Shown here: positions 23,677 to 50,552 of the stretch, piece after piece | Numbering within the stretch: position 1 is the stretch's first letter | How the letters are laid out: each line of letters starts with the position of its first letter | NCBI GenBank assembly: GCA_002633005.1 | Contig: NMRA01000037.1 | Coordinates: 716,703-780,702 of the forward strand | Direction: 5' to 3' | Length of the DNA: 64,000 bases | Source of the DNA: Phoronis australis | Lineage: Eukaryota; Animalia; Phoronida | The notes under the pieces: model-generated | Told to the model about the DNA's origin: nothing | The model's database searches: none | The model's input: the letters and a program-made list of their open reading frames with translations, nothing else | Made by a program: the position numbers and the translations under genes

Positions 23677-24773
23677 ATTGAAAAAGCATCAGTGGTACCT
23701 CCGGTAACCATGGTAGACAATTTCCGTTGAAAGAATTATTGTCATCCATCAGTTCAAGTTGCGGTGAAATTCATTTGGCATATAAGAGAAAATGATTACT
23801 AACTCCTCCGCAAGAGGCTGTACTTAACATAAACTGCATCAGACACTCCCCCACATCTCGGAGTGCGATGGAATTCGAGATTTTCAGTCAATATTGCACT
23901 GGCATTTTTGAAATTAGTGTATGGGTAGCCCCTGTGGGCAGTGTCTTTAACTGTAACCACGGAACTGATTTTCAAATTTATTTTGTTTTTTTCTTACTAA
24001 AACGGTTATACCATACCGCTGCAAAGGGTATAGTAAGGTCACGTGTTAGGCAGGTCGATGAGCAGAAACAACGGGCAGGTACGCGTTTGTGATTAGAAGC
24101 CGGGCACTCGTGCCTGTGAGCACTGCCAACCTTAGCGACTTGACGCCCCAGCGATACATCCAAACATCACATCATAATCATGTGTTCTCCACAATACCAA
24201 TTCTAAACTCGACGCAAATTTTTAGAGTTCAATATCATTCGTCAACACTATCTTTTCTTTAGTCTATAGCCTTCACGTCTCCACTGGAGGTATTTATGTA
24301 TAGGTATTTATGTATGTTTAAAAATGTACACTGAACTTGGTCAGGTGTGACCTACTTTTTGACACTTTGTAGGGCCTACGCGTGAAAACTGCGAATTGTG
24401 CTCGAAGTGCCCATTCAGCTGACGACGGTCTCATGAATAAAAAAGTTGTTGCAAAAGCGCGTGGCCAGAAAGCGCGCGCTACATACGTGTCACTTGTCAT
24501 CACAGACATTAGTTTTCGGATAGCACGTCGGCCAGAAATATAGATTCGCACTTATTTCAGAAAGTTTCTAATGCCGTAAAAACTGTTGCGTTATTTTTAA
24601 GAGATATTGCTTTATTAATCCATTTTAATGTATTCATAATAAGTGTTTTTAAAGTCAAGTATCTAATAAAATGCCCCACTCATAGTGGACACCTTCACCC
24701 CCGAATCTCCCGGAAAATAACTCAGACTTTCACGCATCCAGTCACCCGGCTACTCAATGACTTTCGGCCTTAA

Positions 24774-25736
24774 AGTGTACACAACATGACTCTAGTACCT
24801 CAAAATAAATTTTATTATTATATCTTACTTGATTTCAGTGCCTTTAGTGCACAGCTCATAAAGAAACACGCAAAAATTGAAAAAAATTATTATTATGTAC
24901 AACGTCATGGGTTGAACCCAAGTCGTTCGCCATACCGTTCGGATCGGAGACAAAGTGTATAGAGTGAAGAGAAAGCAAAGTACATTTAGCGTCGAGAAGG
25001 TTCGTAGAGGGATCAAAAGATGTTTCCGGAGGCTGCAGCAACAGCAGCCAGGCAGAAAACGTCCCGGTGTTCCGAAGGACACCAAAGTTGCGCAGAAGTG
25101 GCATGGCTTCGTGCGCCGAACGAGAGTGTGGGACGTCATCGTGGACCAAGCGATTCGGTCCGGGGCCACTCTGTGTTCTGCCCACTTTGAGGACTCGTGT
25201 TTCGACTCCAGTCACAGGAGACGTTACGATGAAGGCCTGGTTCAATAAAGGACAATATTTATCATTCAGAAACATCAGCTCTTAATTCAGGATCGTCTGT
25301 TGGATGACTGGGTTGACTCGCCGAGCCCGCGAGGCCGCTTCTCTCGCGGGAGGATCCAGTTCATAAGGCTCAAAGTAGAAAAGTACGCAGCCGGAAGCAC
25401 ATTAAACTTGTTCTCGCTTTCGTGCAACCCCATTTCCTCATCCTGGCCACCATTCCCATACGTTTGTTCATAGTATTCGTTCAGTTCTTGCTCATAATCG
25501 TCGTCACTTTCAAATTCCCTGGTCTCCGCCATTGTTCAATGCTAGTCACTGATCTCTTGTGTTCAACCCATGACGTCACATGGCGGGAAATGTGAAAATT
25601 GGCAAAATTGAAGGAAAAATCAAAATTTCGAGCTAATTACACAAAATAAACATGGGTTTAGATAAATTTTACGTCATACATTTAGTCTGTGGCCACCGGT
25701 AATTCAAAATGTGCAAAAATCCATGGTGTGTACTGT
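24774..25736. mobile_element. Non-autonomous Kolobok-like DNA transposon with decayed THAP ORF (+) and convergent acidic ORF (-)
   Basis: TTAA at 24770-24773 and 25737-25740. TIRs agtgtacacaacatg / catggtgtgtactgt. Subterminal perfect inverted repeat acgtcatgggttgaac (24902-24917) / gttcaacccatgacgt (25561-25576). THAP motifs inside. Confidence 0.75.
25015..25248 (+). pseudogene. Frameshifted THAP zinc-finger domain remnant (transposase N-terminus)
   Basis: Across frames: KRCF / GGCSNSSQAENVPVFR / PKDTKVAQKWHGFVRRTRVWD...ATLCSAHFEDSCF. This gives the C2CH THAP signature (C..C, P, W, CSxHF). Stop follows shortly after. Confidence 0.75.
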
Positions 25737-26723
25737 TTAAGCCCTACCGAGACAATTCTCCACGTTTTAATGTGATCAGCAAGTGCTGAATAAAACGCGT
25801 TCTCGTGATACTGCTTGTGTTATTTCTTTAGTTACAATGCACGCCTATGTCGTTATATTGCGTTTACTCCGGCAAACGAACGCTGATGACACGCGCGCGC
25901 TCGCTCTCTCACACACGCAGACGATCTTCAAAACGTGACTACGACATGTGAGTTCGTCCAGAGATTTTTCTCATGTTGCTGGGTACGATCTTGCGCATAT
26001 TTAAACGGATCTTGTTCTAATACCGACTCCACAGGAACTTAAAATCTTAGGGACGCTACTTGGAAAACTTAAGTGAGGATTTCAGGTAATTTGTTGAGTC
26101 GAAACTATATTTTATTCAAGCTCAGTGCCCTGTCGACGATCACTAGGCAGGGGCGCATCGACGAGTTTTCGCCCAGGGATTTCAGCACAATTTTCTGTAA
26201 AATTATCGTAATTTATGAACGAAGTTTGATAGCAATGCGCCACATTTTTTGACGTAAATTCGGTGAATCCTAGCTTCTGATTTCATCCGTTTCGGAGACC
26301 ACTGTTTTAACCGCCTTGGGTTAAAATAAGCGCCTCCCCCCGAAACGAATTTTACTAAGGGCCCCGGGCGCTTTATTACGGCCGTACTGTTAACTGCGTC
26401 CTGGTAAAGTGAACTATGTGTTTAGTGTTGGTAAACTCAGGCTCACATTAGATGATGAGGGCTGAAGTACCACGCCAACCAAGGTTTGAAACCTGGCGCG
26501 GCAATTTTTAAACTTTACCGAAACTCGACGCGGCAAAATACAAACCTGTTACCGTGTCGAGTCAAAACAGGTCGTGGAGAACACTGTTAATCAAATGACT
26601 GACGAAACATCTCATTCAGTTTCATTTTTTTTCTGTTATGCATGTGTGCGTTTGGGAACATGTAAGGTACACCACTTCATGTATCTTTTACAAAACCTTT
26701 TCGACTTCATAGACTTCCGTCAG

Positions 26724-26862
26724 GGCTGCGTTCCGTAGGCGCAAGAAACTCGCGAAAACGAAAGTTTGCGAAAACTTCTCGAAATATTGTCATGCATTAT
26801 ACGCGAAGCATATGGTCACACTAGCTTTACTCGCGAGTGTCTTGCGTCTACGTAACGCAATC
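26724..26862. mobile_element. Short hairpin MITE
   Basis: tgcgttccgtaggcgcaagaaactcgcga and tcgcgagtgtcttgcgtctacgtaacgca form a ~29-bp imperfect inverted repeat. A similar terminus lies at ~4378. Confidence 0.65.
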
Positions 26863-27903
26863 GTTTGTTCTGAATGGGTGAGGTCTGCACGTCATCCTCA
26901 TCGCTTAAAATAGATTGGATGGCGATAGTCTCAGTTTATGACCTGACGGTGGCTGGTGACAAGTATCACCGAGAACTTGTCTAGGTCTGTAAAACACGTG
27001 TAGCATCAGTTTATGGCGACAAACTATGCGTATAACACAGATGTTCAGAAACAAATCCGTGACTGCTATAATCACTTCTTGATTTATGACCGTATTTGCG
27101 CATTCCTTGCGCCCACGCATATGCGTACAGAGTCATCCCCCCTCGATGGTTTCCAAACAAGGAAATTTATAGTAATCGGTGGAAATCTTGATATTGGTCA
27201 TGGCGGACCAGGTACGACATATCACTATCAAGATAGCTCATCCTAAAAGTAAAGATTTGGGATTTTTACAAGTTCCAATAATTAATGTAAAATGATCCAA
27301 TGCTAAATATTTACACCATTTTTGAAAATAAGTTCGGACTAAACTGTGCAAGGTCTGTGTAATTATGTGTGAATGAGGGCTTTGAGTTTTCCGAAACTTA
27401 AATCAATTTAAGACGTCAAATTCTATAAATTCAAGCTCTGCTCCACTACAATAGAATCTAATTTCTAAGCTGAAAGCGAGGGAACATTACATCTGAACTT
27501 TCGTTAAAAAAGACTGAAATTAAAATATCACTAAAAAAAACTAAGTCGCAGTTAACAAAAATAGGAATTAAAATTGATATTTTATATTTGAAACCGTCAA
27601 AATGTGCTTCTCTTACGTTAATAGTCGCATACGCATAAACATTTAATACGCCTTCTGTAAACAGGCTAACATCTGCAGGTTGACCATTTAAGATAACTTT
27701 TTCACGGGCCTTTCATGCGAGAGACTTCTTAATCTTGTGATCGTCACCGGTATGTGTGGAGTTGTGAATTAATTAGATAGTTTCTATAACTTGTTTGCAC
27801 TAATTCACCGCGTATCAGTTTGTATTAGGGTGTGTAGTTTCGCTAATATTTGTCAGTAGACGCCTGGAAATTTAAAGTGGGCGTTGTATGGCTGTCCAAA
27901 GTC

Positions 27904-27991
27904 TATAAATCCAACTGAACTCCACGCGACTTCGTCGTTAATTTGGAAACGTCGTCACCAGGGAAGCAACGAAAAATCACGTAGAGTTCAA
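27904..27991 (+). promoter_or_regulatory. Candidate proximal TATA promoter and alternative non-coding first exon of the PTH-like precursor gene
   Basis: TATAAAT at 27904-27910 and strong donor caa|gtaagt at 27992. No ATG between them; the donor could splice to the acceptor ttttcag|gaatcATG at 29176. Confidence 0.5.
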
Positions 27992-29180
27992 GTAAGTCAG
28001 AAATGTTCGGGGTTTATGATGCTAACAAGCACTGCATTTTGAAAATACGCCAGATTTCTTAATAAATCATTTTGCATTGAAAAATAACGTTTTCAACCAT
28101 TTAGACAATTATAAATGTGGTTACTAATGATTTCACCAATGCTAATTTAAGTAAAATTTGAAATAACGCTCTTACCTAAAGCAAAAAGAAATGATTTTTT
28201 TTTCTAATAAAATGGTCTAACAAACGTTTCGCGACGTCAAGCGCTTAGGCTACTTTTTGAGGAATAAATCGAGAAAAATTAAAAGATTTTACTCAATCAG
28301 AAGAAAACGCGTATAGCTGAAAACGTGTCTTTAAACAGAACGTCTTCTTTAGTATTTCGACAGTGCGATGACATTCGCTACAGTGTAAACGCGAAGGTAC
28401 ACTTGAGTGTATGAAATGCCAATCAAATTACTGCACCGGTATAATTAACGGGTAACTAGTTGAGAAGCCCACTAATCATACGAACGATAAATTAACATTT
28501 CCATTAAAATATTGAGACGAACATAGATTATACATTATCCACTTTATCGTCGCCAGATGTCGGTGTTGACAAAGGAGTATTGCTCACATAATTGCCTAGC
28601 CATTTTATCGGGTTAAAAACTTTCAATGCTATGCGGCAGTTCTCATGTTGTAAATATGAATTACGGCGCACTTATGTCACTTCCGTTATATGCTAATGCT
28701 TCTTCGGTTAATTATACATTGTTGAGTCATAGTTCGTGTATAAAGTCTTTGATGATCGCCCGATTGCATTTAGCAACGTTCAGCAGTTGTTAATGGTAGT
28801 CACCTTTTGTATCTCATTGCCAGACAACCAATCATTTCAAAGTAGTTTTGATGCTGCATTATGAGGATAACTCCACAAGATTGTCCATGCGTGGAAACGC
28901 AACCAAGAAGCATACTGATAGCAATTTACAAGAGTAAATTAAATTTTTAGTAACTAAAAAGATGGGGACGTTTTCGCTTACATGTTACCTTCTCAGAATG
29001 GTAAAGCGTCTTCACATTAGGACAATCCATGATATGCGTCGTGAATTCAAATGTCCTTGTTGTGAATTCAGGCACCCTGGGGACGGGTAGCAATGAAGCC
29101 GCAATGGTGAATGTATGATGTCGCTGCTAAAATATTTTCATTGTGAATTGCATGATAAAATAACTTATTTTTCAGGAATC

Positions 29181-32100
29181 ATGCGTTCCCGCGATTTCGT
29201 CGTCTTCGCAGTCCTCTTTGTTATTGTCGTTGTATTCTCATCAGCCAAAAGTTTACCGCTCAGGTGAGTTTTAAATTTGCATAAGCGAAACGAGTTACAG
29301 ATCGACAGAAGTCCAGATTATGTGCAACCGGATAATTAATTTAAACTTTTTGTTTTATGCGAAGAACTTGCAAATAATTCTGTGGTCGCCACATCTTTCG
29401 TCAGACGGGTTTAGTCGGGTTATTCTCGCACATCTATTCTGTGTTTGTTTTAAATCTGCGCTGGTGAAACCAAGGTATCCACAATAGCTTGCATTCAAGT
29501 CTCGCTTGAATGGTTTTGAATTGTTTGGAATTGAAACTATACAGAACTTACGAGCCTTCACAAAGTTTTGAAATTTTTCAACACACTCGTCCCAAATAAA
29601 CTTTTGCAAAAATGTGCCGTGTTACCTGAGTGGCCAGGAGACGGAAACTGAAATGTTGCTGTCGGACGTCGATGATCGATCGTAAGTGTCAATGACTCCC
29701 TGTTTTTAATTGGTGACCTTATCAATTCAAGGAAACCTTGGCAAGCTCGCTGGTCGAATTCACGTGCAGCTTCTCTCCCAGAGCGGATTCCATCTTCCGA
29801 TTTGAGATCTCATGGACTCAGCGGAGTTCAATTTGAGGTCACTGACAGCAGCTTAAAATCTAGAGAATACAAGGACACGCGGTCTTGGGGATTTTTGCCA
29901 CCCGAATCGAAGATCGTGATGCGTTTACAAATTTCCGTTCATTTTAGCCGTGTTATTTGTCAAATTCGGTCCAGCAAATTTAATTTTCGGGTGTGGACGC
30001 TTCTGAGTGGTCAACTCGAGAGACATGAAGAAAAAAATGAGCTACATTTCTTAAGGCCAAAATCAAACCGAAAGTTAGCCAGTTACTGAGAAGACTTAAG
30101 ATTGCATTTTTGGTCTATATAACCAAAATGAAGGCCTGTCATCACTGTAAAGTGTCTTTTCTGAATTTTCGCCTTCGGTCTTAGCTTAGTTTTCAGTCTT
30201 AAGTCGGAACGGGCCCTTGAAGTTCTTGCGCCAGTAAATTTCATTCCTCGTGTGAGTAAATAATTTTATTCGTGAGGGAAGGACGCTCCTTGACCGTAGT
30301 AATTTTATAGAAATGATTGTTGTCATTATGTTACATTAAACTAACGTGTTTCTCGGGATATATTAGTTTTTGCTTACGTTCTTACTTTATCTGTTTTCTT
30401 TTTGCAGTTTTTGCAATCTCAGTCTAAAAATTTTCAGATTTTAATTTTCAGTATAATTCTTCTTTATGATTTACTAGTAGATTGATTCACTTACTATTTC
30501 TTTAATTCTTTCGTCATTTCTCGTTTCCTCCGCATGTTTCGTTTTTGCCTTTTGTTAGTTTGCGACGTCTCCAACGGCGGCAGGCCGATGTTCGCCTTGC
30601 CGATATGCTTGCCTCCATTAATCAACAAGGAGCTTCGCCGACAGGGTGCGCTGAAGTTGGTTGTGGTTTAAATTTAGATGAAGTGTAAGTGGAATTTTTT
30701 TGTAACTTTCAAAGTTGAAACAAGAGTTGGAAATTGGATTTTTTAGGAAAAGGACAATTTCTCTGAAATTTACCTAAACTTTGTTGTTGCCAGACTAGAA
30801 GTCCAATTTCAGACGCTTGTTTTTTGTGCACTTGTGCATATTGTTGAGTTATCCCAGATTGGTCACCTATTCATCGAAAGCGAAAAATCTTTCGAAACGA
30901 AAAAATTACCAAAATCTAAACATCTTTCAAAATCTGGTATTTCTCATGAGTGACTTTACAGATAATTCTTCCTCTGTGATTCGAGCATGCGCCTTACGCT
31001 GCTTATGCAATTGATATATTACTTCTATATACCAGGTCTAAGCGCTCTAACGCGGACCAACGTCTGGCAGAAATGCAAGCTTTTCTAAGCCTGTACGGCC
31101 ATGGGTCGACTATGCCAGATCCTTTGCGGGCGTAGGTATTCCCTGTTGTGTGGACTACTCACTAACAACTATTTGTTGTCGCCTGCGTAACTAACAATAT
31201 ATTCTCTGATGTTTCGCCATTATTTTTGTTTCTGTTTAAGTTTGCATGTGTCATGTTTCAAAAGCATGTTTCAACGATGATTTGTTAATTTTTTCCCGAC
31301 AAACTGTCGATGAAACAGTGACACCTCACTGTCATCATTATCAATAAAATATCAGGCAAGAATTTTTTTATTAATGAAATACTTGTAGCCTAACTATTCT
31401 TTAAGGCGCCATAAACCCACATTCTGTCAAAAATGAATCTAGTTCATACAAAAATGAATTTTTGGGAAGAATTAAGAAGCTGTCTCGCGGCGAGAAAAAT
31501 CTAGTCAAACTCACGTGCTCTCATTTAAATTACACAGCAATGTCTAGCATAATCTCGCGAAGTCTTTCTTTTTAGCGAGGTACTAGCGAGTTTCAACTGT
31601 TACTGAACTCTACCTGGGTTTCAGACTCATTCATGACTTGTGGCGTTTGGAAAGAAGAGACGATTCGTTATTTTAGGTCATCCTTGGTGCATATAAGACT
31701 CGAGGTGATAAGCTAAATCGTTGGTGTGCGTTCAGTAACGCTGGTACCTACGCTAGGACCCAGCTAAAATTTAGCCAAAGTCATGTGATCTCATTTAAAA
31801 TGCACGCAATATCTCGCGTAATCTCGCGAAGTCTTGCTTTTTAGCGAGGTCCTAACGTTACTGAAAGAGACGCTGGTGTCAAACAATGAGAATGGTCTCT
31901 TCTTCCAAAGCCCAGAAATCCTTTTCAATCTTTGTAAGGAAAAATCGTAGATCAATTTTATAACGGACGTCGAATTAAATCAAAAATTGCTTGACATTAA
32001 AAACAGGCTTATAGCATCTTTAACTTATTTGTAGAAGTGTTAGCAACTAAAATTCACATTATCAATCTTTCTCCGAGAAACTGAAACAATTTTCTATCAT

Positions 32101-34567
32101 TAAGCGGATCCAGAGTATCAAAAGGTTTGCTCAAATTTAACTTGTTCATGATTGGGTCATCTGTACGAGTCCATGATGCGGGTAGTTAAGGCGAGTCCAT
32201 GAACACACAGTAGATACAACCTGGGTCCGCTTGCAGCGAAGCTTTGCCTGTAAACATGAGGCGTGCACGACTTTATGCTAAACACTAGAGTAAAGCTTAG
32301 CAGTTAGTCTTTAGGCCTATGGCGTGTTGTGAGTTCAGGGTAACTAACCCGCTAAACATGTTAGATGTTGTTCAGTGTTTTTAATCCATGGCAATGTACT
32401 GAAGTGGACAAACGACGGGGGTAAATGTCTAATTTAAGACATGTATTTTGCGACATGAGTTTTGTCGCGATGCGCCTATAAATGAAACTCAGGTACAAAC
32501 ACCCATGTCAGGGCGGATCCAGGATTTTTATTTAGGGAGGGCCAGGGCAGAGTATTAGCCAGGATTTTGCCCGTCAGACGGCGCACCCCCGAACTGCCAA
32601 ATGTAATCTGGGAGAGTTTTGGGGGGCCATGGCCCCCTTGGTCCCCCTCTAAATCCGCCATTGCATGTGCTGAACATTTGGGCAAAAAACGAATTGTGGT
32701 ATACGTGAATGTAACACGGTACATTGGCAACGCCGAATGATAACAAGTATTTATCTCAACATGTTAATGTTGAAGTTAACACTAGTTGGAAACATTCAGG
32801 AAGTAATGGGGGGCTGATCACGTGGACGTCTCCTGTCGCCTCCTGGTTGTACAAGGAGGTACTTCTTCTTCACAACGAGTGGCAGAGGGGCATGTGATTA
32901 GGCGTGATGCGTTTAACCAAAAGTGAAATTGCCTCCTCGTTTTCTAGAAGCCATTAGCATCGGGTTCCACGTGATCATTGATCGCCATGTTGTTACTTGA
33001 AAGTTTCCCATTGTTCAGGTAAACAGACGCATGTAGAGAGGTCTGACATGTACTTCATGTACGTAGATTTAGCACGTCAGCATGAATTTCAGTTGTCGGT
33101 CCTTTAATTCCACCCACGGTATGCAGTACGCGCTGCCAGACTGAGATGATCGTGGTTGGGAGAGTTGCTTTTGTAGATAATACATCATTTCGCTTCATTT
33201 TTTTTCAAGAGCAGCTAAACAGTAAGCAATTGTCGTTAATACATCCAACTCTCTTCTCCATTTTGTCTTATTAATATTCAACCTCAAAAAGTATATGTAT
33301 AGCTGTACGGAGCTTTTTGTTTTTTCGATGATTCTAAAGCCGAGTTCTTCTGTTGTTCCTTTTCGAAAAAGAGTTTACGAATTGTGTGCATGTAAGTTCT
33401 GTGCGTGTGCGCGTGTAGAAATATGTAACTTTGGATGTAGTAAACGAAACAAGATAACACGATGACAGCTCTTTGGCATGCGCCAGACTTCCGTTTCCGT
33501 TGTGATGTGTACACAGTTTACTGAGGGGATGCAGTTTCGTGTACTAATGTCTACCTCAATAATGAGTGTACAGGTAAAGACAAAGCTAACTACTCATTTT
33601 TTTCATGCCACTGACGAAGGAGAATTCCAAAACGTTAACATGCAAGGAATATTCTCTTTTATCCAGTTTTATTAACTACGTCCAATGAACCTGCTCCTGG
33701 TAACGATCGAATTGTGTTTTTACGTTTAATTGTGACGTTGATGACTCTTGGGGACCACTGAAGACGTGATATCTCAAACTGAGATTGTTTCAAAGAGTGA
33801 AAGGCAATTTATTGCTCTATACCAACAGCATCTAATTTAAATATGCTAATCTTGTTTTGGCCTATTAACAAAATATTGATTGCTACTGTATCATTTGAAG
33901 CTTTAAAACCAAATAATTCGTCAGGTTTAAAAATTTCGAGCAAGTTTGAAAACACCTTATGCTAAACCATCAAGCGTTACTAACCCTCTGAGTGACTGAC
34001 TAACAAAGAAACCACTTTGTGACGCAATAAGGAAGTGTCTCATTTTTCGCATAGGTGAGATTTTAACTGTGCAAATTCAGGTGGCAAGACGCAAGGTTGT
34101 GTATCTCTTAAAGGTTCGATGACAGGTCTTATGTTTTGCTACTCAGAAAATCCTATTAATCCTCTAGGACCTGAAGTGTGAAGTGTAATCATGCGAGGCC
34201 TTGTTGCCTATTACGAGGAACATCTCTAACTTCGGACACTTAAAATGGTGTTCAATATCATGAAATTGCAGTGACAAGAAAGAAAGCTGTTGTGTAAAGT
34301 CACGAAAACTCGAAATGTTCAATTTTGGCCACCTCGTTGTGGTGCCTAGCTTGTGTGGGGAAGTGCGTTCGTAATATTTGACGTCTTCTCTTTGCAGAAA
34401 TGAAGTATTTTCTTTGTAATTCAAGCGATATGACTTATTTCAGCGGAAAAAGAAGTGTAGAAAAACAACGTTCGCCCATGATCTACCCAGATGAACGTGA
34501 CAGAGAGACAGAAATTGTCTATCGGTTACTAAGGAGATTGGCGCACGAAATGGACGAACGGTTATAA
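29181..34567 (+). CDS. Neuropeptide precursor, invertebrate parathyroid-hormone-like (iPTH / PXXXamide) family, 159 aa, 5 coding exons
   Basis: Exons 29181-29263, 29631-29681, 30559-30684, 31036-31131 and 34444-34567, all GT-AG with phase-2 introns. Protein: MRSRDFVVFAVLFVIVVVFSSAKSLPLSGQETETEMLLSDVDDRSLRRLQRR-QADVRLADMLASINQQGASPTGCAEVGCGLNLDEVS-KR-SNADQRLAEMQAFLSLYGHGSTMPDPLRA-GKR-SVEKQRSPMIYPDERDRETEIVYRLLRRLAHEMDERL*. It has a signal peptide, dibasic sites, an amidation GKR, and DQRLAE plus DPxxxG motifs typical of iPTH/PXXXamide. Confidence 0.88.
31484..31873. repeat. Two adjacent copies of a short interspersed MITE-like repeat; third inverted copy at ~34775-34910
   Basis: Shared core tctcatttaaa..taatctcgcgaagtctt.ctttttagcgaggt at ~31520-31585 and ~31790-31855. 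Reverse complement (gctagaaaagcaagacttcgcgagatta) at ~34797-34824. Confidence 0.65.
32509..32663. mobile_element. ~155-bp MITE, copy 2 (intronic), perfect 5-bp TSD CATGT
   Basis: catgt|cagggcggatcc ... aaatccgccattg|catgt. Reverse-complement homolog of 20260-20424. Confidence 0.8.
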
Positions 34568-37100
34568 CACCAGGTAATGAATTTTGTTCGTACTCACTTG
34601 GCTGTGTCTAGTGAATGTCCGTTAATGTTAGAAGATATCCGTTCCCCTGAAAAATACGGACCTTTTTTGGTCTCTCAGAAATGAGAGTGCGTTTTGCTGC
34701 TAAGGTGGATAGCCAGGCGAGATATCCTGGGTTTTACACTGGAACTAGTGGAATTTTTTGATAGTTCTGGGTAGAGTTCAATACCGCTAGGATCTTGCTA
34801 GAAAAGCAAGACTTCGCGAGATTAATGTGAGATATTGCAGTGTATCTTAAGTGAGAAAGCACTTGATTTCGGTTAGATTTTTCTCGCCGCGAGACGCTAC
34901 TGATCTCTACCCTGGTTTTGACCATATGGGAAGGTTCGTTTTCGCAAATCGTAGGTAACAGTAATGAAATTGGTCTACTTTTTGATTAACCCATTCATTG
35001 CTTTCAATCTCAAACGTACACCTGTGACAATAAACGACCCAATTTCTGTAAACAATACTCTCACAAACCAATAATTTGGTAAATGTCAGTTGTTGTCTAA
35101 CAGACCTGTTTTTGAAATATAGGTATATTTCTCTTCTAGAGATTCAGAAAATTCTCAGCATTTTCAACGTGCGATACTGGAATCGTCAAGGCTTCGAATC
35201 TCATCGCTACCACAAAGTTTTCTTACTCGCTCTTAACCCAGCTCTACGCTACATTCCCACTATTGGTGCTTTGCGCGTCATGTGATTATTAGTGTCGTCT
35301 GCTTGTCGCCACCGTTTGCTGTCAATCATTGTTAAACGAAAGCCACGTCATTTGTTTTCTGAACGGTTAATGCAGATTGCATCGTGAGTAATTAGGGTAA
35401 TTTAAAGGTAATTCGCGTAATTACCGGCATACGAATACGACCCGATCCCGAGGACACTGTCAGGTCATATCTGAACTGAAGGATAGCGACGCTGCTCTCC
35501 CGAGGTCCATATGACCTGATACGCCCGAGAGATCGGTCTATATTTGTTTTATACGACCACTGATGATTCTTTTCATGTTTTGATGTACTAAGTCATGTAA
35601 TCGCTAACTTTGTTTCCACAATCAAGGCTTTATTGTTTCTGCACTCTGGTATCCACGGTAGATTGTGATCTCCTCCGGAAAGGTGTAGACTTCTGACAAT
35701 TCTGATTGGCGGATTTCGACTAGGCCGACTTCGGCAAAGTAGGTGCCTCGCGATTGGAAAGTGTATTTTTTGTAGAATCAGACTGTTCGTTCTGTTCCGA
35801 AGCAAAAATACTTCTTTGATCTCCTCCAAAAGAGGTTTGAGTAAGCTTTTTGAAAGACATAAAAGTCATGGTTCGAAAGATGCCAGAGACTATTTCCCTT
35901 GTAGTAATCTCTTACTCTTACACGCAGTCTGAGCTGGGTTACATGATTATACAGGAGGAAGGTCGCCTCAAGTCATGAAACCGGAGATTGTGAATTTAAA
36001 AACGACGATGTCAGTTTCTTTTAGTTTGAGACTATAAATTCGTCACCGATAAAGTTCGCTCATTTAGACGTTGCAAACGGAATTGTTTGTACAGTTTGTG
36101 ATAAGTCAGATCACGAACAGCAACATCTGTAGTCCTAGCAGCTTGAAATGAGAAGTGAGATTTTATGGCTAGCCGGGCAACACCACGTCATAAGGAAAGT
36201 CACCTGTCTGCGTTTTAGCCAATCAGAGGACAGAAGCATCAGCTGTCGTGTAGCATTTAATGTTACACTTGTCGAAAAAAGTGTAGGTTTTCATTTAAAA
36301 AATACCCCATGTATACCTTTTAATTTATTAGAAATGTACCATCCGATGCATAGGCCTACATTTCCTACCTGTAAAGACAATCATTCATCATATAGAGTAT
36401 CTAAGTGTTCTTCGAAGTTCAAAGTTCAAAGGTAACCACAAGGTCATTCTTACCAATTACATGGTTGATTTAGGTCAGAAATGCAACATCTGATATATCT
36501 TGACGTGTTATTTATTTTAGGTTATTTATTTATTTGTTTCTCTCACTAGTCATGGAGTGCATTGTTTACATTGGAAATATAACAAATTTCTCAAAAAGTA
36601 AATAATTTTCTTGTTTATTTTTCTTTTTACTCACTCAAAGTAGATGTGCCCAAGAACAAGTGATTGAAATACGTCGGTCAAGATTTGCATGCTCAAAATT
36701 CAGCCTGGTTGGACAATAGACAAACGGAAGCACTTTAGATTCTTACATTAGAGCACTGCAGATTGGATGGATGTAAAAAGCCTTTAGATGAACCTAAAAT
36801 GATTTCATTGCTTCTCAATACTGTGCAGGCCGCATTTCACAGCTTGTATAATTGATGTGTAGTAATGGAATCACTCAATCAAAAGAGGAAGCAGGAGGTC
36901 CAACGTGTTCTGATCCCCTCCTCGCCTACTTATACACCATTGCAATGGACAGGCCCCCTCTGACTATGACTCATGATCCGCGTCATACAATGCGACATCA
37001 TGCAATCTCAAACACTTAACACATGTTAAAAAATATATTATATAAAAACATAGACAATTGCACATAACTTATTATTTGGAAAAGAATTGTCAGAAACTGG

Positions 37101-40100
37101 TTATTCCCTGTCGATAACGTTAAATCTCTCTTGCATAGACGGCGCTAGTGTTTTCTCACGTGCCCTTGAACGAGCCATGCTGTCTGGTGAACTTTGAATT
37201 AATAGCGACGACGAACGAGCGCTGTCTTGTGACGTAGAACTCAATTCATGGACACTGGCATTAGTTGGGAAGATTCTACTTTGCACCTTATAGTCGTCCA
37301 AGCACAGCTCCTGAAAATTGAATACATGTATTGAAGTAAAAAACGAGACTCCATGATAGTAATTCAACCTTGGAACTATTTTTAAATGATTTGACCAGCC
37401 AACAAATTTACTCATAAAGCGTTTGCTGTGTTAAAACGGCAATAAACCCGTGTTCCGTCGAAAAAAACAAAATTTGATTTAAATCACCGGTGTAAAATTG
37501 ACCTCAATGTGATCCTTACTCGGGTGAGAAATGATTGACCATGCTCGGTGAATAAAATGACATGCTGTGACAAATCAACTTGTAGAGCCTAGTATTAAGG
37601 AGCTGGTAGTTCTGTACAGTTCCTTAAATCGCACCTGCTTTGAATAAGGAACAATTTGGGACAACTTTCATAAGGGTAAGTGATATAAACCAACAGTTGT
37701 TTTCGGGACGAGGACGCCGCTTTAAGCTAAAGGCGCTTTTTCGGTAACGTCGACGCGTCAGTGCTTTGGGGAGTTGCGGTTATATTTGGTCCTGGATAGA
37801 AATTAACAGCACCAGTTGACTTCGCAGTAAACCGGTGGATTAACAGCGTAGAGTCGACGCTGCGGTGCGATATGAGCGGTCAACTTCGGTCTCATCGAAG
37901 TTATTGCCAGGGGTCACTGCTATCGTCAACAATTAAAGGTCAGCGTGGACGCTAATAGTTGCTTGTATTTTGCTGGAATAATCACCAACCGATTTAGAAA
38001 TAAGTCAATTAGCACAGGTAAATGTTCTCAAATTTTCACATCAAAAATCTTAGGGTGCATGGGATGCATCAGCGCTACCTTGCGATTACTTCGATAGCGA
38101 CGGCGTCACCTCCCGTTTACTCGATGCCGTTACCGCAGCTGGTATGAATGATACAATTAACTTCGCAGTTTACGTCGACGCTCCGCTCATACGAAATGGC
38201 CTTCAGGATGAAATGCAAACGAAATATTGTATTGCTTCCGTGCACACAGATACAAACTGTCTAAACTTGCACCCTAATTGTATCAGCTTTTCCATGATAA
38301 ACAACAATGTCAAAGTAACACTTTTCACACTTTAAATTTTTTAAAAGGCAAACCTTAATTACAGAACTGCTCTGGCCGCCATCTTGTCCGTTCACTTTGC
38401 CCGGCCATCTTGCCCATCCACTTGAACCTTTCTTTGTTGCTGGGATCGAAGCCAGCAACGCCCCCTTTCGCTCACTTCGAACAAGGTCGACAACCTGTGC
38501 CCGATACTCGGACCAAACGAGTTCGGAAATGTATTTTTGAAGCAGTTCATCCTTGGAAGGAATTCTAAAACATGACGTATTGTATTAAATAAGCATAGTC
38601 ATCGTGTAACCGTTGAATCTTGCTCTGTAGTAAACGCGGTTGAAGGTAATTTTGCAAAATCTGTTTTTCTCACCATATTTGAAGTTAACTGAGGACGATG
38701 AAGATTAGGTATTTTCCTAGACACAGGTGGAATATTACAAAAACTGTCCATTTTGTAAACGAGGCCTGATTTTTCCTCAATTTATAGCAAGGGTAGTCCT
38801 ATAAAGGTCATATTACCGCTTGGGAGTGTAGTATCTGCGCATGAACTGGTCTATGCTAAATGGTGGCGCTAGCTCCTCCATCAATAATTTTGACACGCGC
38901 AGAAGTGTCGAACCTTTGCTGATCATGATAAGTGGCTCTGTCCGACTGCCAGGTAGCAGTATGCCAAAGTCCTGCAAGGATAAGACGTATTTCATTATGA
39001 TCATTTCTTCGTTGCCAAAAAATGGTGAATCAGACAGGTAGAGTCCCGCAGATACGTATAAGCACTGCACTAACAACATGTTCTACATGCAAAGTGTATA
39101 AACTCCTGCCCAACACCCACCCCCACCCATCTAACTAAAGAAAACCTCCCTACGCTTGTGCCGAGTGCCCGTTAGCGTCTGCAGGAGCCCCCTACAGTTT
39201 TGCAAGCGTGGCCTTGCGAGCCTGGACGCTACTGAAAGTGAGCGGAGGAGGCAGCGCAGGTAAATCTGCGGGAATAAAACGTTTGTAAATATCACTGAAG
39301 CACTTCCAATTTCCGTTGGAGAGGCCAAAGTCAAGATTATTCCCCATAAGTGTCTCAAGAATAGCAAACGCTATATTGATCGCACCCACGCACTTTCGAG
39401 GAGGCAAAGTGGTATTGGCAGCGCTTAAATAGCACGTGCGCCTCACAGGCATAGATTTTGTGTCATATTCCATATCCTCCGTAACACAGTCTCTCTGGTA
39501 TTTTCCTATAATCTCAAACAATAGCATTAGGAACACCACATGTAAGTGTACCCTCAAATTTCTCATATGAGGTGTTTTTAGCTGTGCATGTTCTACTCTC
39601 AGTGATATGGCGGATAATCAGGTGGTTTCAAAATGGCCGGAAATTTTCAAGATGGTTTGACTGACTCATATTTTATCTTCTCTTGACCAACACCCTGAGC
39701 TGAAACCTGGACAAAAATTATTCAGTTCGCTTTACTCACATAAATGAATGCCTCACAAATGAAGTCATTTTCCATTTTGAATGTCGAGTGACTGTCTACA
39801 ACTCGGGTAAATTTCGTAGCTTCAAATTAAACCTCGGAAATAATTCAAATGGAGATCGATTGTCTGTATGACTGAAATTCGCACATGCGCAGATGTGAAA
39901 CACGAGGAGAAATTCAAGGCTACGAAAATACCCGGAGTGTTCCACTGAGAATCTACAATTCGACCTTGTGCAATGCCCGGCTCTGATTTTGCAAACACAT
40001 GAACGTATTTGGTCCAGTTTCCAATTAAAAGACGATCCTGCACTTACGCTATGGTCGCCTTCTCGTAATTCCTCCACCTTGGAAAAACATTCTTTTTGGT

Positions 40101-43100
40101 GAGCTCCCTCTCCCGGTATTTGCAGTAAGCGGCCGGAATATTTTGCGTACGATTTATTCTTGATTTGTTCCATAGCGCCAAGGACATTGAACTGCTTTAC
40201 TAGGATTACTCCGCCCTAAAATGCAGACGTAAAGTAACTGCAGTTGTTAATCGTAAAGCGTCGCTGTAAGCTGTAATGTGCAAACAAGTGCGCAATTTGC
40301 GTTTGTCATAGCTAACACTGGTAGCCGATAGAGGGCAGCGCGATTTGAGACTTCATAATGTAGAAAATTCAGTTTACTGCAGATGCGCTCAAATCACAGT
40401 TAGATGATTTTTGCTCTATAAAGTAAACTTGCAGACGACGATGCTCAGGAGTGTTTCTTACCTTAGCAACAAAATAAATATGTTTTGCCGTGGACCAGTC
40501 CTTTTCTATGACTTTGCCATGGGGGATACACTGAAGCTGGGACTCAAAACAAAGTTTAGTTAGCTTGTCCTCGGGCCAGTTGTGAAACATGCTGTGTCTC
40601 CTGCAACAATGTTTTAAAGTTCCATTTAAATATTCATTTCACATATTTATTTGGTGATCAATACATGTAAAAGACTCTCGTATCCAGCGCCACATGTGCT
40701 CATTGGATAACAGTCAAGATGAGGAGGCACTGAACATTTCTCATGGGGGGTTGCCTATCAGAACACACGTCAATGCACTCGTCACCCTTTCTTCACTCTG
40801 TCAAAAACTGCATGTAAATAAAGAAATGTTTTGAGTCATTTCACATCACAAGCCCTACAGATGAGCACAGAAACTTTATTCTCTCTTGTATTTTTGACCC
40901 TTTCACTCCCAGTGGAAACCAAGCTGAACTAAGAAAAATAAGAGCAAAAAATACAAAATCGGCACTTTTCACCCCAATATCACCACTTCCCTGCCGATGC
41001 TCGACTAAAGCCAACATTAGATTCCGAAAGCAAATTTCCTACCGATTCCAAAAATGTGGTAAAAACGTACTGTCAACCAACTAGATTTTTTGCAAATCTG
41101 GCTTGTTTGAGGGCTACCGGAAATCGCGGCCAATTTCTCAGTTGCTATACAGCAATGCACAATTTCAACAGGGGGGCCACCATCTTGAAGAAGAGAGCAG
41201 CTACAGCCGAGAAAGTGGCCTTTTTTCATTCTCAGCATGTTCACACTGACAAAAAACACATTCACTTGGTATACATACAATACCTAACTAAAAAATGCCC
41301 CCAAGCCTGGCCTACCCCTAGATTTTAATATTTTGGAGTGCAAATTGGCCGCGGCCGCAGCCTAACTATTCAGTGCCACCTGACGACACGAGTGTATATG
41401 CATAAAGTTAAGTAGAGCTTATACCTTAACGGGTAATTGCAAAACTATCAAACAGCGGAGGATTTCGAAATTTTGCGGTCCGGTACGCTGCATGCTCGCG
41501 TAGCCAGTTGCAGGTAAACAAAAAAAAGTTATCGACATTTTCGAGAAATTAGCAGTAGCCTGGAATCATCGAAGTCACAAACTCTGAAATGGCAGCCGAA
41601 CGCCCATCGTTGACCCAAGTTCAACACGTTAGGTAGCCGAGCATCTCAAGCGCACCAAATGGTAGACATCACGGGCAAAGATATTTGCCCCGGGTCTTGA
41701 TTTCAGCGAATGTCTATGGACAACGCCGAGAACAGACGATTTGAAATAAAATCACGAAAACAAAACGGATTTGTATTTTATTTCTCTTGTCAAGGCTAAT
41801 AACTTCAAGAAGTATGTGCTTTTCAACAATAACTCCAATTTGTGTTTCTGGGACGTAAAAAAACGATAATGTCCCAATAAGCTCTGTCTACTCACTTCGA
41901 TTTTTCGTGTACGACTTTGTATCGACAATCGGACTGATAAAAGACTCTTGACCAAAAGTAGAATACGACTTTTCTTGAATAGATCAAAAATCGGAGTAAA
42001 ACCGGATATTTTTTATTTCAATCGCCAAGTCGTATACGACATTCTTGCTCGAAGAGCCGCTATGGAATACCTGTTTATACACTCCGCATAAGTTATATAC
42101 GACTGTCGACTTCAGAGTCGTATGCGACTAAACTGAGTGTATGACTTTGTTCACTGCTCTGTCATTTGGTATATTGTTTTTGATTAAATGGTATGCGTTC
42201 AAACTCGTTTTAAGTTTTGAAACGGAAATGTGTCCTCGATGTTCTATTCAGGAAATAAGTTAGCAGTTGCCCTTTAAAAATGGTTTGTTCCCTGAAGTCG
42301 TCATCTTCGAAGTAATGTGTTGTTGAAATCTTCCAACCCTTTCTGCAAAGGAGAGTTTTGTCTTACTCACTTGGCAATTCTTATTTTTTCTTCAAGTTCT
42401 CTGCTAAATATATCGGGACACAACTCCATGAACGTGGGCTTGTCGATTTGGAATAATTCTGTAGATTCCCGGCAAATAATTGATGCAGTGCGCGTGCCGT
42501 CGCTTAGAAACGCCAACTCCTGAAATTGAAAAAGATTTATTTAAATCGAAAATTCGTCCGAATCAAAAATAAATCGTTTATAACCCTTTACATTTTAGAT
42601 ACCGCATTACGAAAATGAGAAAGTTTTTAAGTCCGTGAAAAGCAAAGACGGTGTTGTGCATGCTTGCCTGTGTTACCTGCTTCATTCTGAAACCCGTCAC
42701 AGTGAATACAAGACGTACTTTACAACTGTTATTGTTATATTCCTGAGGGGGTGATTTTTAACAATAAAATATTCAGATTGAAACGAAAAATCTCCTACCA
42801 CAGAACTAATATTAAACTAAAATTGATGAAGATAGATTTAATGATTTAATTAATTGTATTTTTACTTGTTTACTTGTTTACAAGATGGAAAATTTCGTCA
42901 GGAGACGACAACTAAGATTTTTGGGAGCCGTGTTCTTACGAAACTGTTCTACTTGAACATATGTGCATTAAAAACTATTTTTATGGAAGCTGTCGCTGTC
43001 AATTACATCAGTCTTGAGACTTCAAACCAATGGTGTTAGAACAAAAGCTAACTTTGAGTACGCATGAACATGAAAACATGTTCAATCGATGAACTAATTA

Positions 43101-46100
43101 GTTGCGTTAAACCGTGATTTATTTTCAGCATTCCGTCCATCTGAAATGGTCCACTAAGATTTTTTAAAGAGAAAAATGTCAAAACAAATATTTCTTTGTA
43201 AAAAAATAATTTAGTCTTGACATGTCTCGACGTGTCCAACAACACCCTCAGAAATAAAATGAAGCCATCTAACGGCGTGGATTGTAATGAGGGTGTGTAT
43301 AGCTCACGCTCACAATGTTCTAGCTTTGTTAGATGGCCTTTTCCTGTTCCCGAGGATGATGTTGGACACATCGAAACAAGTCAAGACTTAAACACCTCGT
43401 TGTTGTTTAACATTATAATTTACTTTTCTTCCCCCACAAATATTTCTTTGTTGTAAAAGACGCAATTTACAAACAATAAAAATGTGCTACAGCAAGAGTA
43501 AACGTGGTGTTTCTATTCAAATGAATTTAATTAATTTCTCGCTGTGCTCAGGCGTCGACTATTGTTGTTTATCTGCTATGTGAATCGACTTTGGCAATAG
43601 TTTTTAACAATATTTTCACTCACTCCAAAACTTTGCCCTTGTCCAATAACTGCCTCGGTCCTCGTTATGTTGCAGCCAGCTTCATCGTCAAACGACTCCA
43701 ACTGTACAAATACGGACCCTGAGTAGATAAAGTAGAAATTGGCCGCCGGGTGCCCTTGGCGTAGTACCACTCGACCTTTTTCACAACTGAAATTTGATTT
43801 TACTTTAACTAGTGCATGCAGTAACCACGACATTAAGAGAAGTAGAGTTATTGCAGAGATTGGCGATTTTAAAATTGTGATAATGTGTACTTTGGAAGCA
43901 CGGAATAAAAAGTGACAAACCATTCTGCCCTGTTTAGCTGGCTAAAAACGGAAATCGAACATCGAATTAGTCCTTTTGTTCTCATAAAATCCGAATCGTG
44001 ATATTCTTAACCGTGATAGAATTCTATTTCCTCTACAGACAAGAACACCAAAGCCAGCAGCGATCCTAAAAACGCTTCAAGGTTTATTGGGGTTGCCCAA
44101 CCCTGAAATTACGTGTTCGAAAATGGCGCGCGTATGCAATGTTTATGGCTTCAGTTGCCAGCTCATTCGGCAACAATTCAAGATCACCTGATGTTTTGAA
44201 ATCCTAAAGCACTTCCGTTAATGATTCAACATTTACGATTAAACAGCGACGAAATGCAGCCCTTTATTTAATAGGTAAAACTAAAATATGCATCCACCAT
44301 CTTTAAATAGAGTAATAAAATATTCATAATGAATTGTTACATTCTAGCTGAAACGTGTGTATTGTATCAAATGTGCAACAGAAGAATTGGTAGACATGGA
44401 TTAATTATGTAACATCTAGCAACTGTCATACCTGTGCAATCTATCTAATTAAATATGTAACGGTCGATGGCGTACGAATATCACAGTAACACCAGCGATT
44501 ACAAAATTAAGACGCTTTCATTGGTTTACTTACTACGTATACGACGCCACGTGACATATATGTTTCTGCATATTTTCAGTGAATTTTTCTTGAAAACTCT
44601 TCATAGTTTTCATGATGGCGTGCAGTTTGCGTAGATCCTCTTCCGTTCTGTCGTTCGGCTTCTTACCTGCTGTCACCTGTGCCCACGTAGGGAGGCGAAG
44701 CTGGGGAGAACAGCAGAGCTATACATATAGTTATAAATGTCTTGTGATAGCACCAATTTGCAAAATCCAGAATGATGCGTTTTTAATAAAAATGCACAAA
44801 ACACATTCACACTATCCATAAACACAAATTCAAAATTCAAATTAAGACTTTTTCCTTGAATTCTGTTTGTCTTTAAAAAAGTGAGGTCCTGTTTGAAAGA
44901 TAGTTATTTGGACAGGTTTTTGTTAAACGTGGAAAACATATAAGGCAAGAAAATAAGCGTGTCTAAGTACGCAGGTTTGCGACATTATAATATTAAGCAA
45001 TTGCATTTGTTTATCTAGTTGTTTTATTCAAGAGGGAAATCAACAATTGGTCGGACTTCAAAACCCCTTGCCCGGACGTCAAAACGAGCTGGCTGGAATG
45101 CAAAACCTAATGGCCGGGGATCTAACTTGGTGGTCGGATCTCAAAACGCAATGTCCGGTACCTCAAAACCAGATGGCCGCACACAAAAAATGGTAGGCCG
45201 AACATAAAACGGGTTGGCCGGCGCTTTAACACAATGGCCGGACAAATCCCAGACCAACGCACCGGCCATCGTGTTTTAGGTCCAGCCAATTAGTTATTTG
45301 GGTGAGGCCATCGCGTTTTGAAATCCGGGCCACAGGTTTGATCATCAGCCACTTGATTTACAGTCCTGGCCACGGGTTTTGAAGTCTGAGCAAGTTGTTT
45401 TGAAGACCGAGCAAGTTGTTTTGAAGTCCGAGCAAGTTGTTTTGAAGTCCGAGCAATTGTTGATTATCCCCTTGTTATTGCTTTGGTGCACTCATACTGT
45501 CTCTCTCTCACACTGCGCAAGAAATCACGCAAAATCGTGTTCACCGACCAATCCGCGGTATTCCCATCCAAAACTAGGCCACACTTTGCCCTATGACATG
45601 AATCCACAGGTGGGCGCGCGTGTTCGCCTCGCATTTGAATTCCCCTTGAAGAAAGTCGTGTTTACTTTTCGAAAACTGCGAAAAACTCTTATTTTTAAAG
45701 CTGTATTTATTAAACCTTCTTATTTTGATAGCGTATCGTGCATGGGGCTTCCTAGAGAGTCACTAATGCAAAACACATCGCTGCTCTAGTCGGCTTTGGC
45801 TCGACGGACGTTATTAAAAACAGGTTGCCGGGCGTTGTTGCAAATTTTCTCATTACACCCGAAGTGACCGTGTTATGAGGGATCCGCTGACAGGTAGCGA
45901 TGTCCTCGCACGTCCGCACATCACCTTAACGGGCATTGACGTACATGCTAAATCGCGTAGAACTCTTCCAACGACGAATGTAAACAAAAACCTTGTCGCC
46001 GTGTCTTAAGTTTTTTGAGGAGCTAACCATGCTTGAGCTGTGTTCACAGGAATTCAAAACCGACATTCTGGTAGACAGATAGGACCCATTAACGTAAGCA

Positions 46101-49100: not shown

Positions 49101-50552
49101 TTATCTGTACTACATACTAGATATCGCACTTTTGATTCAGTTCTAATGTTTGCGTCACCGGAAGTGGCTCTGTGTTTAAGCGTGTTTGAAGTTCTCTTGA
49201 GGATCGGGGAGGTTAAAGGTCGCGCGCACGAATCTGTAAAAGAAGAAATTGAAACACTTGACTGAAATCAAGCTGTCACCGAGATAGTAGCAATAGATAA
49301 ATTGTCATCGGAAAGACATATTGAAAATACTGTCGAGTGGAAATCACTTGTTATGTACACCCTCTGTCAACACAATCTTGCACTTCGTGTTGATACAACA
49401 ACGGTCCCAAGAACTCCTCTTCAGATTTATCTAACTTAGCATTCCTTCGTGAAGCATTCAATAAGAAATTCTTAGTTGCCCACATTTTGTTTTCAAATCT
49501 CAGTCTTTCAGCTTCTGCCATTTCAGGTTGAAGACTGCTTACTTATTACGACAATGTGCCTAATAGACCTTCATTCACAATCAAAAAAACAATCATATTA
49601 ATCAAAAATCTTAAGCTTATTTTCCAATTTGGAGTCCATTAACATCTTCCAATCATTGCTTTAAATTGCTAATAATGTTTCCGAAAGTTACCTATAAGTT
49701 TTCTCCAATTGATACAGTAACAGCTCGGTACGTAGTTCAGTGGAACAAACTCACCACCCAGTGATAAAAATGAAAAATCATAACCATTAAGTGTTATATC
49801 AAAAACGCAAAAGTGTTCATATCTCCTGCCGTTAAATCCCTCTATTTGTTCAATTAAAAGTGAGCGAAGTAATTGCATCCGTTTAAACTTTACCTTGAAC
49901 ATTTTATGATTCTGTAAGTGTCTCACATAATGCTGTTTATTCGACGGTGCATTGTCTATATAAATCCCATTCATTAAACAATTCAAATCTAATGGGATTT
50001 GAGTGCGATACGTACATACTTAGTCTGTGCAAATTTATGCCAATCGTGTATTCCCGATTTTGGCACGCGCGCAGGTTCTCAAGAAAACGGTACTGTGTGA
50101 GTATTCCTCACGTGAAGAGACTAAGTGATCAACTTGAAACGTCGATTGTGTTTCAATATTTTATATGCGCAATTAGCAAACCACTTACGATAATTCCCGT
50201 GTGCTTCTGCTGTGGTATTATCGGAAACCTGTGGCCATGAAACCATGTAGTTGTATTGCACTTAAATTTGCAGAACTTCTGAACCACAGCGGCTTGGAAG
50301 CTTGTGAATCAAGTAATTAAAACACCCAACTCACTGTGTTTGAATTAGGTCTATATTGAGTTCTGTTTTTACTACAACTCAAAATACAGTTTTCATCTGA
50401 TTTTTATTATTTATGTACGTTTATTGTAAAAATTATAATTCACTATGAATAGCGTGTGCCCAGATAGTGTCAAAGCATGATATCCGGTTGTATTACCTTT
50501 ACGCAAAAACATTAGGATTGAATTCACCAATCTTGATACCTTGTTTCCACAT
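37101..50552 (-). CDS. CNBD2: Cyclic nucleotide-binding domain protein (CNBD2-like), ~748 aa, 11 coding exons
   Basis: Phase-consistent GT-AG exons: 50552-50540 (MWKQ, least certain), 49233-48554, 47349-47158, 44700-44534, 43786-43624, 42519-42371, 40600-40462, 40215-40048, 38971-38817, 38564-38354 and 37310-37101 (2247 nt). Motifs: KKPNDRTEEDL; GRVVLRQGHPAANFYFIYSGSVFV...GQSFGELAFLSDGTRTASIICRESTELFQIDK (CNBD 1); MFHNWPEDKL...KHIYFVAKGGV (CNBD 2). Exact orthology (CNBD2 vs CNBD1 or a lineage-specific paralog) is unverified. Confidence 0.85.
40723..41380. mobile_element. 658-bp PIF/Harbinger-like MITE, copy 2 (intron of CNBD2-like gene)
   Basis: tga|GGAGGCACTGAA ... TTCAGTGCCACC|tga: a 12-bp TIR with 1 mismatch and 3-bp TSD TGA. 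Homologous to 8334-8991. Confidence 0.88.
45029..45474. mobile_element. Foldback-type element built from ~21-bp subrepeats, 5-bp TSD TTATT
   Basis: ttatt|caagagggaaatcaacaattggtcggacttcaaaac ... gttttgaagtccgagcaattgttgattatccccttg|ttatt. The unit gttttgaagtccgagcaagtt is tandem at 45376-45460 and decays inward on both arms. Confidence 0.8.
46193..46350. repeat. Degenerate (AAT/GAT)n microsatellite
   Basis: Runs of aat/gat/gac triplets. Confidence 0.7.

Follow-up and report, generated by a model that had tools for sequence, protein, structure and literature searches.

The window analyzed here is a stretch of 64,000 nucleotides (nt) of Phoronis australis DNA, to which all positions refer. Its plus strand carries a peptide precursor gene of the iPTH/QSGamide type, in which an exon with a predicted signal peptide (exon 1) is spliced to one of two peptide exons (exons 3 and 4, encoding the peptides P1 and P2) and then to a shared exon (exon 5), followed by an exon of 3' untranslated region (UTR; exon 6). 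The exon numbers are those of an original prediction, which comprised five exons and missed exon 6. The features of the gene are as follows.

29181..29263, plus strand: exon 1, coding part, with the start codon, the predicted signal peptide and the first pro-region residues, ending in a phase-2 donor (joints from 29263 to exons 3 and 4; hydropathy; N-terminus as in the published precursors)
29631..29681, plus strand: exon 2 of the original prediction, an acidic spacer of 17 codons, unsupported and at most a rare cassette
30559..30684, plus strand: exon 3 (cassette A), a basic cleavage site and P1, a cysteine-ring QSamide-type peptide starting at 30581 (RNA joints)
30685..30688, plus strand: in-frame stop TAA (30686-30688) directly past the exon 3 donor
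31036..31131, plus strand: exon 4 (cassette B), a Lys-Arg site and P2, a PXXXamide/iPTH-type peptide of 29 residues starting at 31046 (RNA joints)
34444..34573, plus strand: exon 5, shared, with the Gly-Lys-Arg signal, the C-terminal pro-peptide and the stop codon at 34565-34567 (RNA joints)
35140..36555, plus strand: exon 6, 3' UTR of about 1.4 kb with an approximate end (RNA joints, a contig of RNA run X1, depth bins)

Exon joints and gene structure

Of the five RNA runs found, the four of one organism were aligned to positions 24000-40000, the contig set X1 as a whole and the raw-read runs X3, X4 and X5 at 18-19% of each, and the joint evidence consists of the 15 joints listed of 41. Exon 1 was joined to exon 3 by 6, 0 and 6 reads in X3, X4 and X5, respectively, and to exon 4 by 3, 4 and 64. 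Joints into exon 5 came from exon 3 (11, 1 and 2 reads) and from exon 4 (12, 10 and 70 reads), and exon 5 was joined to exon 6 (34573>35140) by 36, 22 and 80 reads as well as by an X1 contig. Both the 1>3 and the 3>5 joint are contained in a single X1 contig of 220 nt. The first mate lies on the minus strand in all reads of the gene's joints, which for libraries made in the usual stranded way means a transcript of the plus strand. The alignments show that exons 1, 3, 4, 5 and 6 and the joints 1>3, 1>4, 3>5, 4>5 and 5>6 are real, and that the read-supported transcripts encode one peptide each, P1 or P2, with a predicted amide. The two coding stretches lie on the plus strand where they had been predicted.

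The use of the two peptide exons differed between samples. The exon 3 share of the joints into exon 5 was 11 of 23 in X3 versus 2 of 72 in X5 (Fisher p 1e-6), or 6/16 versus 2/48 when counted by distinct starts (p 0.002); no significant difference was found between X3 and X4 or between X4 and X5. Expressed as P1:P2 joints, the ratios of 11:12 (X3) and 2:70 (X5) differ thirty-fold between the RNA runs.

All introns are of phase 2, and the two cassettes measure 126 nt (exon 3) and 96 nt (exon 4), both multiples of three. The frame is thus kept with either cassette or with the two in tandem. Precursors computed from the window have 142 amino acids (aa) for exons 1-3-4-5, 110 aa for 1-3-5, 100 aa for 1-4-5 and 70 aa for read-through of exon 3, the last with a P1 predicted from the DNA to be non-amidated. 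Once exon 3 is joined to exon 5, P1 has 35 residues and gains Gly-Lys-Arg, which predicts a Val-amide; the end ...DEVS proposed originally applies, as a free acid, only to the tandem isoform. The signal peptide, whose cut site is a prediction, was borne out by a strongly hydrophobic N-terminal region, which follows a basic start and has an 11-residue hydropathy peak of 3.7 (residues 7-17). The stop codon lies 6 nt upstream of the last observed junction (34573>35140), so by the rule on stop position relative to the last junction nonsense-mediated decay is not expected. The extent of exon 6 to 36555 was taken from depth bins and contig pieces.

At the 5' end, a T-rich, acceptor-like ...CAG within 29150-29180 ends at 29175, five bases 5' of the start codon, and suggests an intron in the 5' UTR. 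No joint to an exon upstream of exon 1 was found among the 15 of 41 joints listed for 24000-40000, and the true first exon could be farther upstream, very short or trans-spliced. Exon 5 is flanked by high-depth repeat copies in inverted orientation (31482-31857 and 34770-34895), whose arms of 23-41 nt are 75-100% complementary; base pairing between these repeats in the pre-mRNA could influence splicing. Two silent differences were seen in the coding exons: G>A at 30637 in an X1 contig, and C>T at 34444, which is present in X1, X3 and X4 and in some of X5 and is silent in both isoforms. The 3' UTR is in part very divergent, with 33 letters differing in a 445-nt contig. These differences reflect either a high level of polymorphism or a closely related sister lineage.

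Identity with published precursors

The gene is real, spliced and already known from P. australis. Its precursors appear in Xie et al. (2020; PMC7224569), where iPTH received its name, and in Thiel et al. (2021; PMC8557429); statements on these and on the other publications cited hold for the parts of them that were covered. All four isoforms derived from the window match four P. australis proteins in the supplement of PMC8557429, with no difference seen by eye, and the QSGamide/iPTH entries TRINITY_DN313826_c2_g1 i1-i3 and g2_i1 thus stem from the same gene. The 1-3-5 and 1-4-5 forms are the P. australis "transcript 1" and "transcript 2" of Table S1 in PMC7224569, and the truncated read-through form is entry g2_i1, a similar Lingula form being seq4 (PMC8557429). 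The family call of the original prediction, iPTH/PXXXamide, was therefore correct, the same protein being listed in Table S1 of PMC7224569 and as "QSGamide/iPTH" in PMC8557429. Other Phoronis species already differ in precursor sequence (entries in PMC8557429), so a match at species level identifies the host as P. australis or a very close relative.

The published entries show no visible protein difference from the window, and the covered parts of the two papers contain neither genomic exon coordinates nor joint counts. The letter string "splic" does not occur in the main text of PMC7224569 and occurs once, in the methods, in that of PMC8557429.

P1, P2 and the peptide family

P1 and P2 are related, as had been proposed: their local BLOSUM62 score of 36 was reached by 4 of 20,000 shuffles. 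The likeness is confined to the N-terminal motif A-D-x-R-L-A-[DE]-M, and the C-terminal halves differ. BLASTP gave no alignment between P1 and P2, and exons 3 and 4 compared as DNA showed no significant likeness (349 of 5,000 shuffles).

Features of the family are found in both peptides. A dibasic site directly precedes the mature peptide (Arg-Arg in P1, Lys-Arg in P2), and the C-terminal Gly followed by basic residues, strictly conserved in the iPTH family (Xie et al. 2020; PMC7224569), is supplied by Gly-Lys-Arg of exon 5, to which the reads link either peptide exon. P2, which is itself listed in that family-defining paper, has the mildly conserved Pro at position -4 and a predicted end P-L-R-A-amide. 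Of the N-terminal Ser-Asp pair, which is highly but not strictly conserved, P2 has the Asp and carries Ala for Ser, as do P. ijimai, Lottia and one Paranemertes entry (PMC8557429, PMC7224569).

P1 begins with Gln and has C-x4-C-G in its C-terminal half, as in the QSamide alignment of oyster, scallop, limpet, Aplysia and Platynereis, where Gln follows the dibasic site, the N-terminus is A-D-like and C-x4-C-G stands near the end (PMC8398477). By sequence, P1 is thus of the known cysteine-ring QSamide type of annelids, molluscs and brachiopods, and not the uncharacterized type of ligand that had been suggested. It lacks the C-terminal Ser before the amidation Gly, ending in Val-Gly; this Ser is likewise absent in Lingula, P. 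psammophila and oyster QSamide2 (PMC8557429, PMC8398477). Without the namesake Ser, we call P1 QSamide-type and place it only in the wider family.

Database searches added one relative. HMMER with exon 3 over 1.84 billion proteins (E<=0.001) gave four matches, of which only P0009 from the gastropod Batillaria attramentaria (E 4.4e-4) is a relative. P0009 holds two P1-like segments and one P2-like segment, with 49% identity to exon 3 over 35 aa (pairwise E 2e-7) and 47% identity to exon 4 over 34 aa (pairwise E 1e-8). The protein is unannotated, and its gene model may have merged alternative cassettes into one. Word-seeded protein searches gave no match at E<=10 among 5 candidates for exon 3 and none among 20 candidates for exon 4 with its flank; with such short queries this is weak evidence. 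Pfam gave no family for the four coding exons tested (none at E<=1 for the peptide exons), and PDB gave no match at E<=10 for either peptide exon, the short queries limiting sensitivity. In the ESM Atlas, exon 4 had no usable match, and the three bacterial hypothetical clusters found for exon 3 at 0.80 are at chance level and were set aside.

Proposed working of the gene

We are confident that this is a phoronid iPTH/QSGamide gene in which exon 1 is spliced to either peptide exon and then to the shared exon, and whose peptides, predicted to be amidated, likely act on a G protein-coupled receptor (GPCR) of the PTH/glucagon/PACAP group. Exon 1 provides the predicted signal peptide, cassette A or B the peptide, and exon 5 adds its Gly-Lys-Arg to the last cassette. 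The 1-3-5 isoform would then yield P1-amide and 1-4-5 P2-amide, and the published 1-3-4-5 isoform a free-acid P1 together with P2-amide. In view of that tandem isoform (PMC8557429), the notion of strictly mutually exclusive cassettes was softened.

From the family and from what is generally known of prohormones, the precursors would be secreted after signal cleavage, cut by convertases at the basic sites and amidated, and P1 would acquire a pyroglutamate and a disulfide between its two cysteines. Action on a class B GPCR of the PTH/glucagon/PACAP group is expected from the beetle and the tick. The cassettes probably arose by exon duplication, with the N-terminal A-D-x-R-L-A-[DE]-M kept and the C-terminal half diverged. 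Ligand binding to class B receptors is described by a two-site model, according to which the activating end would have been kept and the end for affinity and selectivity changed between P1 and P2. By analogy with oyster and beetle, the physiological role is likely in gut, gonad or nervous-system signaling.

Receptors of the PTH type are activated by PXXXamide-type iPTH of the beetle (EC50 63 and 413 nM, aequorin assay; PMC7224569) and of the tick (EC50 63 and 52 nM; bioRxiv 10.64898/2026.06.22.733765). Our search of the literature, with most subscription papers outside it, showed among the results listed no receptor test of the iPTH/QSamide family in lophotrochozoans, none of a cysteine-ring QSamide-type peptide and no deuterostome iPTH-like ligand. 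A word search of the PMC8557429 supplement gave nothing usable for a labeled phoronid PTH receptor.

Several observations weigh against the proposed working. The RNA evidence covers 15 of 41 joints and 18-19% of each raw run, and joints out of exon 1 are fewer than those into exon 5 in X3 (9 versus 23) and X4 (4 versus 11), an imbalance that 3' bias could explain, yet which leaves room for other forms. The match to the published proteins was judged by eye, and three of the four HMMER matches (P0007, P0008 and P0010) were rejected as repetitive and apparently unrelated proteins. Class B receptors of the PTH/glucagon/PACAP group couple to cyclic AMP (cAMP). As far as covered, the published receptor assays read calcium with aequorin, not cAMP. 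Receptor pairing in Lophotrochozoa was stated to be unproven in 2021 (PMC8557429), and no report of phoronid peptides by mass spectrometry was found in the covered parts of that paper, whose mass spectrometry is nemertean.

The same gene could also work differently at the receptor: P1 may have a receptor of its own, or be a modulator or antagonist, so that splicing would switch between two signaling routes. The restriction of the likeness between P1 and P2 to their N-terminal motif fits this alternative, as do the different exon use between the RNA runs and the conservation of the ring form in phoronids, brachiopods, molluscs and annelids, some molluscs having separate genes for it; moreover, the receptor tests published used single iPTH peptides of beetle and tick. 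The common N-terminal motif and the common gene nevertheless suggest one receptor group, and Thiel et al. (PMC8557429) consider that QSGamides likely activate PTH-type receptors. We think the alternative unlikely and keep to the reading in which both amidated peptides act within the PTH/glucagon/PACAP group.

A tentative extension, which we find possible though doubtful, is that the choice between exon 3 and exon 4 is an ancient regulated switch in phoronids, brachiopods, molluscs and annelids, perhaps older, that delivers two ligands of differing receptor selectivity. The calcitonin/CGRP gene, which gives two ligands from one gene, offers a comparison for such an exon switch. If the switch is true, the thirty-fold difference in the P1:P2 joint ratio would be the first sign of this regulation in a phoronid.

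Exon 2 and the predicted five-exon precursor

The original prediction had assembled five segments (29181-29263, 29631-29681, 30559-30684, 31036-31131 and 34444-34567) into a 159-aa precursor with an acidic spacer, releasing both peptides, as the main product. The segments do join in frame with GT-AG borders and give an open frame of 159 aa, and spliced reads, a check named with it, confirmed the joints 1>3, 1>4, 3>5 and 4>5. Exon 2 is different. No joint to it occurs among the 15 of 41 joints listed, and it is found neither in the four published P. australis isoforms nor in the orthologues of two other Phoronis species, which leaves the 159-aa protein unsupported; three motifs of exon 2 had no occurrence in the supplement of PMC8557429 (3.87 million characters), in which the isoforms of the gene are listed. 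It is bypassed by the direct joints from exon 1 to exons 3 and 4; in X5 there are 70 of these and 72 joints into exon 5, a near balance with little room for exon 2. The acceptor of exon 2 is GAG, and its T tract is weak, with a T fraction of 0.32 where the other acceptors have 0.37-0.68; exon 2 does not align with the gastropod relative P0009.

On the other side, 29300-30520 contains no other open AG..GTRAG segment that keeps the frame, exon 2 has a good consensus donor, and its depth bin lies slightly above the next intronic bin (0.52-2.75 versus 0.07-1.42). For P. australis and P. ijimai, a tandem isoform that contains both peptides but lacks exon 2 has been published (PMC8557429). Taken together, exon 2 is at most a rare cassette, and we consider it very improbable that the 159-aa precursor is the main product. 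Nor do the peptides obligately share one precursor, since the reads give single-peptide transcripts; the tandem form is a published third isoform, and its 3>4 joint was not among the 15 of 41 joints listed.

Neighboring features and the host

A CNBD2-like gene with a cyclic-nucleotide-binding domain lies tail to tail with the peptide gene. Its exons, located approximately by tblastn, and a further open frame are as follows.

47349-47164, 44700-44536, 43785-43624, 42525-42370, 40605-40462, 38989-38816 and 38563-38384, minus strand: exons of the CNBD2-like gene (38384-47349)
48536-49267: open frame of 243 aa with no Pfam match, which may be an upstream exon of the CNBD2-like gene
24916-25245, plus strand: open frame with a THAP domain (Pfam E 5e-5)

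Reads fall on both strands of the THAP stretch with many differences, and it is likely the relic of a multicopy transposon. The best matches of the CNBD2-like gene are to hemichordates and mislead on the host.

The idea that the host is an ambulacrarian deuterostome, and that the gene thereby links protostome iPTH/PXXXamide to chordate PTH ligands, has virtually no chance of being right: a CNBD2-like exon did have hemichordates as the best three of its 6 matches (63-65% identity), followed by a brittle star and a chiton (59%), but that search scored 9 candidates, and 65% versus 59% over 54 aa is too distant to place a host, whereas the precursor matches P. australis, a lophotrochozoan protostome, throughout, signal peptide and pro-regions included, with congeners differing, and the peptide exons have no detectable likeness to PTH-family peptides in Pfam or PDB. 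The hemichordate affinity suggested by the neighboring gene was therefore dropped, outweighed by the species-level match, provided that the published phoronid entries are labeled correctly, and with the host being this species or one very close to it the proposed deuterostome bridge falls.

Significance

The discovery value is small, as the family has a name, its phoronid proteins have been available in the literature since 2020 and the splicing pattern has been described for the oyster. What is added here is a genomic exon map (which the gene-structure supplement of PMC8557429 could already hold), read support for both isoforms with a single peptide, and a hint that samples differ in the ratio of the two. 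For the question of which receptor is used by the cysteine-ring peptides, this compact two-cassette gene offers a clean pair of peptides. On the origin of chordate PTH ligands the phoronid gene says nothing.

Comparison with known systems

To vertebrate PTH, PTHrP and TIP39 the likeness is only at the level of the receptors, which group with the iPTH receptors. No likeness of these ligands to P1 or P2 was detected in Pfam and PDB with the short queries available, and iPTH shares less than 12% identity with them (Xie et al., PMC7224569). The link between iPTH and PTH is at receptor level and was already drawn in 2020.

Compared with iPTH of Tribolium and Ixodes, P2 has in common the N-terminal motif D-Q-R-L-A-E, the Pro at position -4 and the Gly-basic signal, and differs in having Ala before the Asp, a position mostly occupied by Ser in insects. 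In beetle and tick, the precursors are described with a single peptide, and its receptor activation has been demonstrated, whereas receptor action of the phoronid peptides is expected by analogy only. In the termite Zootermopsis, transcript 2 has the iPTH peptide replaced by a two-cysteine peptide with an initial Gln (Table S1, PMC7224569), which hints that the cassette switch predates the lophotrochozoans.

Among lophotrochozoans, alternative transcripts are listed for Lingula, Sepia, Octopus, Lottia, Crassostrea, Capitella and Pomatoceros (Table S1, PMC7224569), and the layout of one gene with alternative peptides is found in P. ijimai, P. psammophila and Lingula (PMC8557429). The closest described parallel in splicing is the QSamide3/PXXXamide gene of Crassostrea gigas (PMC8398477), which, like the phoronid gene, splices to QSamide, PXXXamide or tandem forms. 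The oyster gene has one QS and two PXXX peptides and is accompanied by two separate QSamide genes, whereas one cassette of each kind was found in the phoronid; P1 is predicted to end in Val-amide, as opposed to Ser-amide in most QSamides. All mature oyster peptides except QSamide2 were detected by mass spectrometry, their function being unknown (PMC8398477). In both genes the isoforms share a signal-peptide part and an amidation exon, and P1 and the oyster QSamide have the core PTGC-x4-CGL in common.

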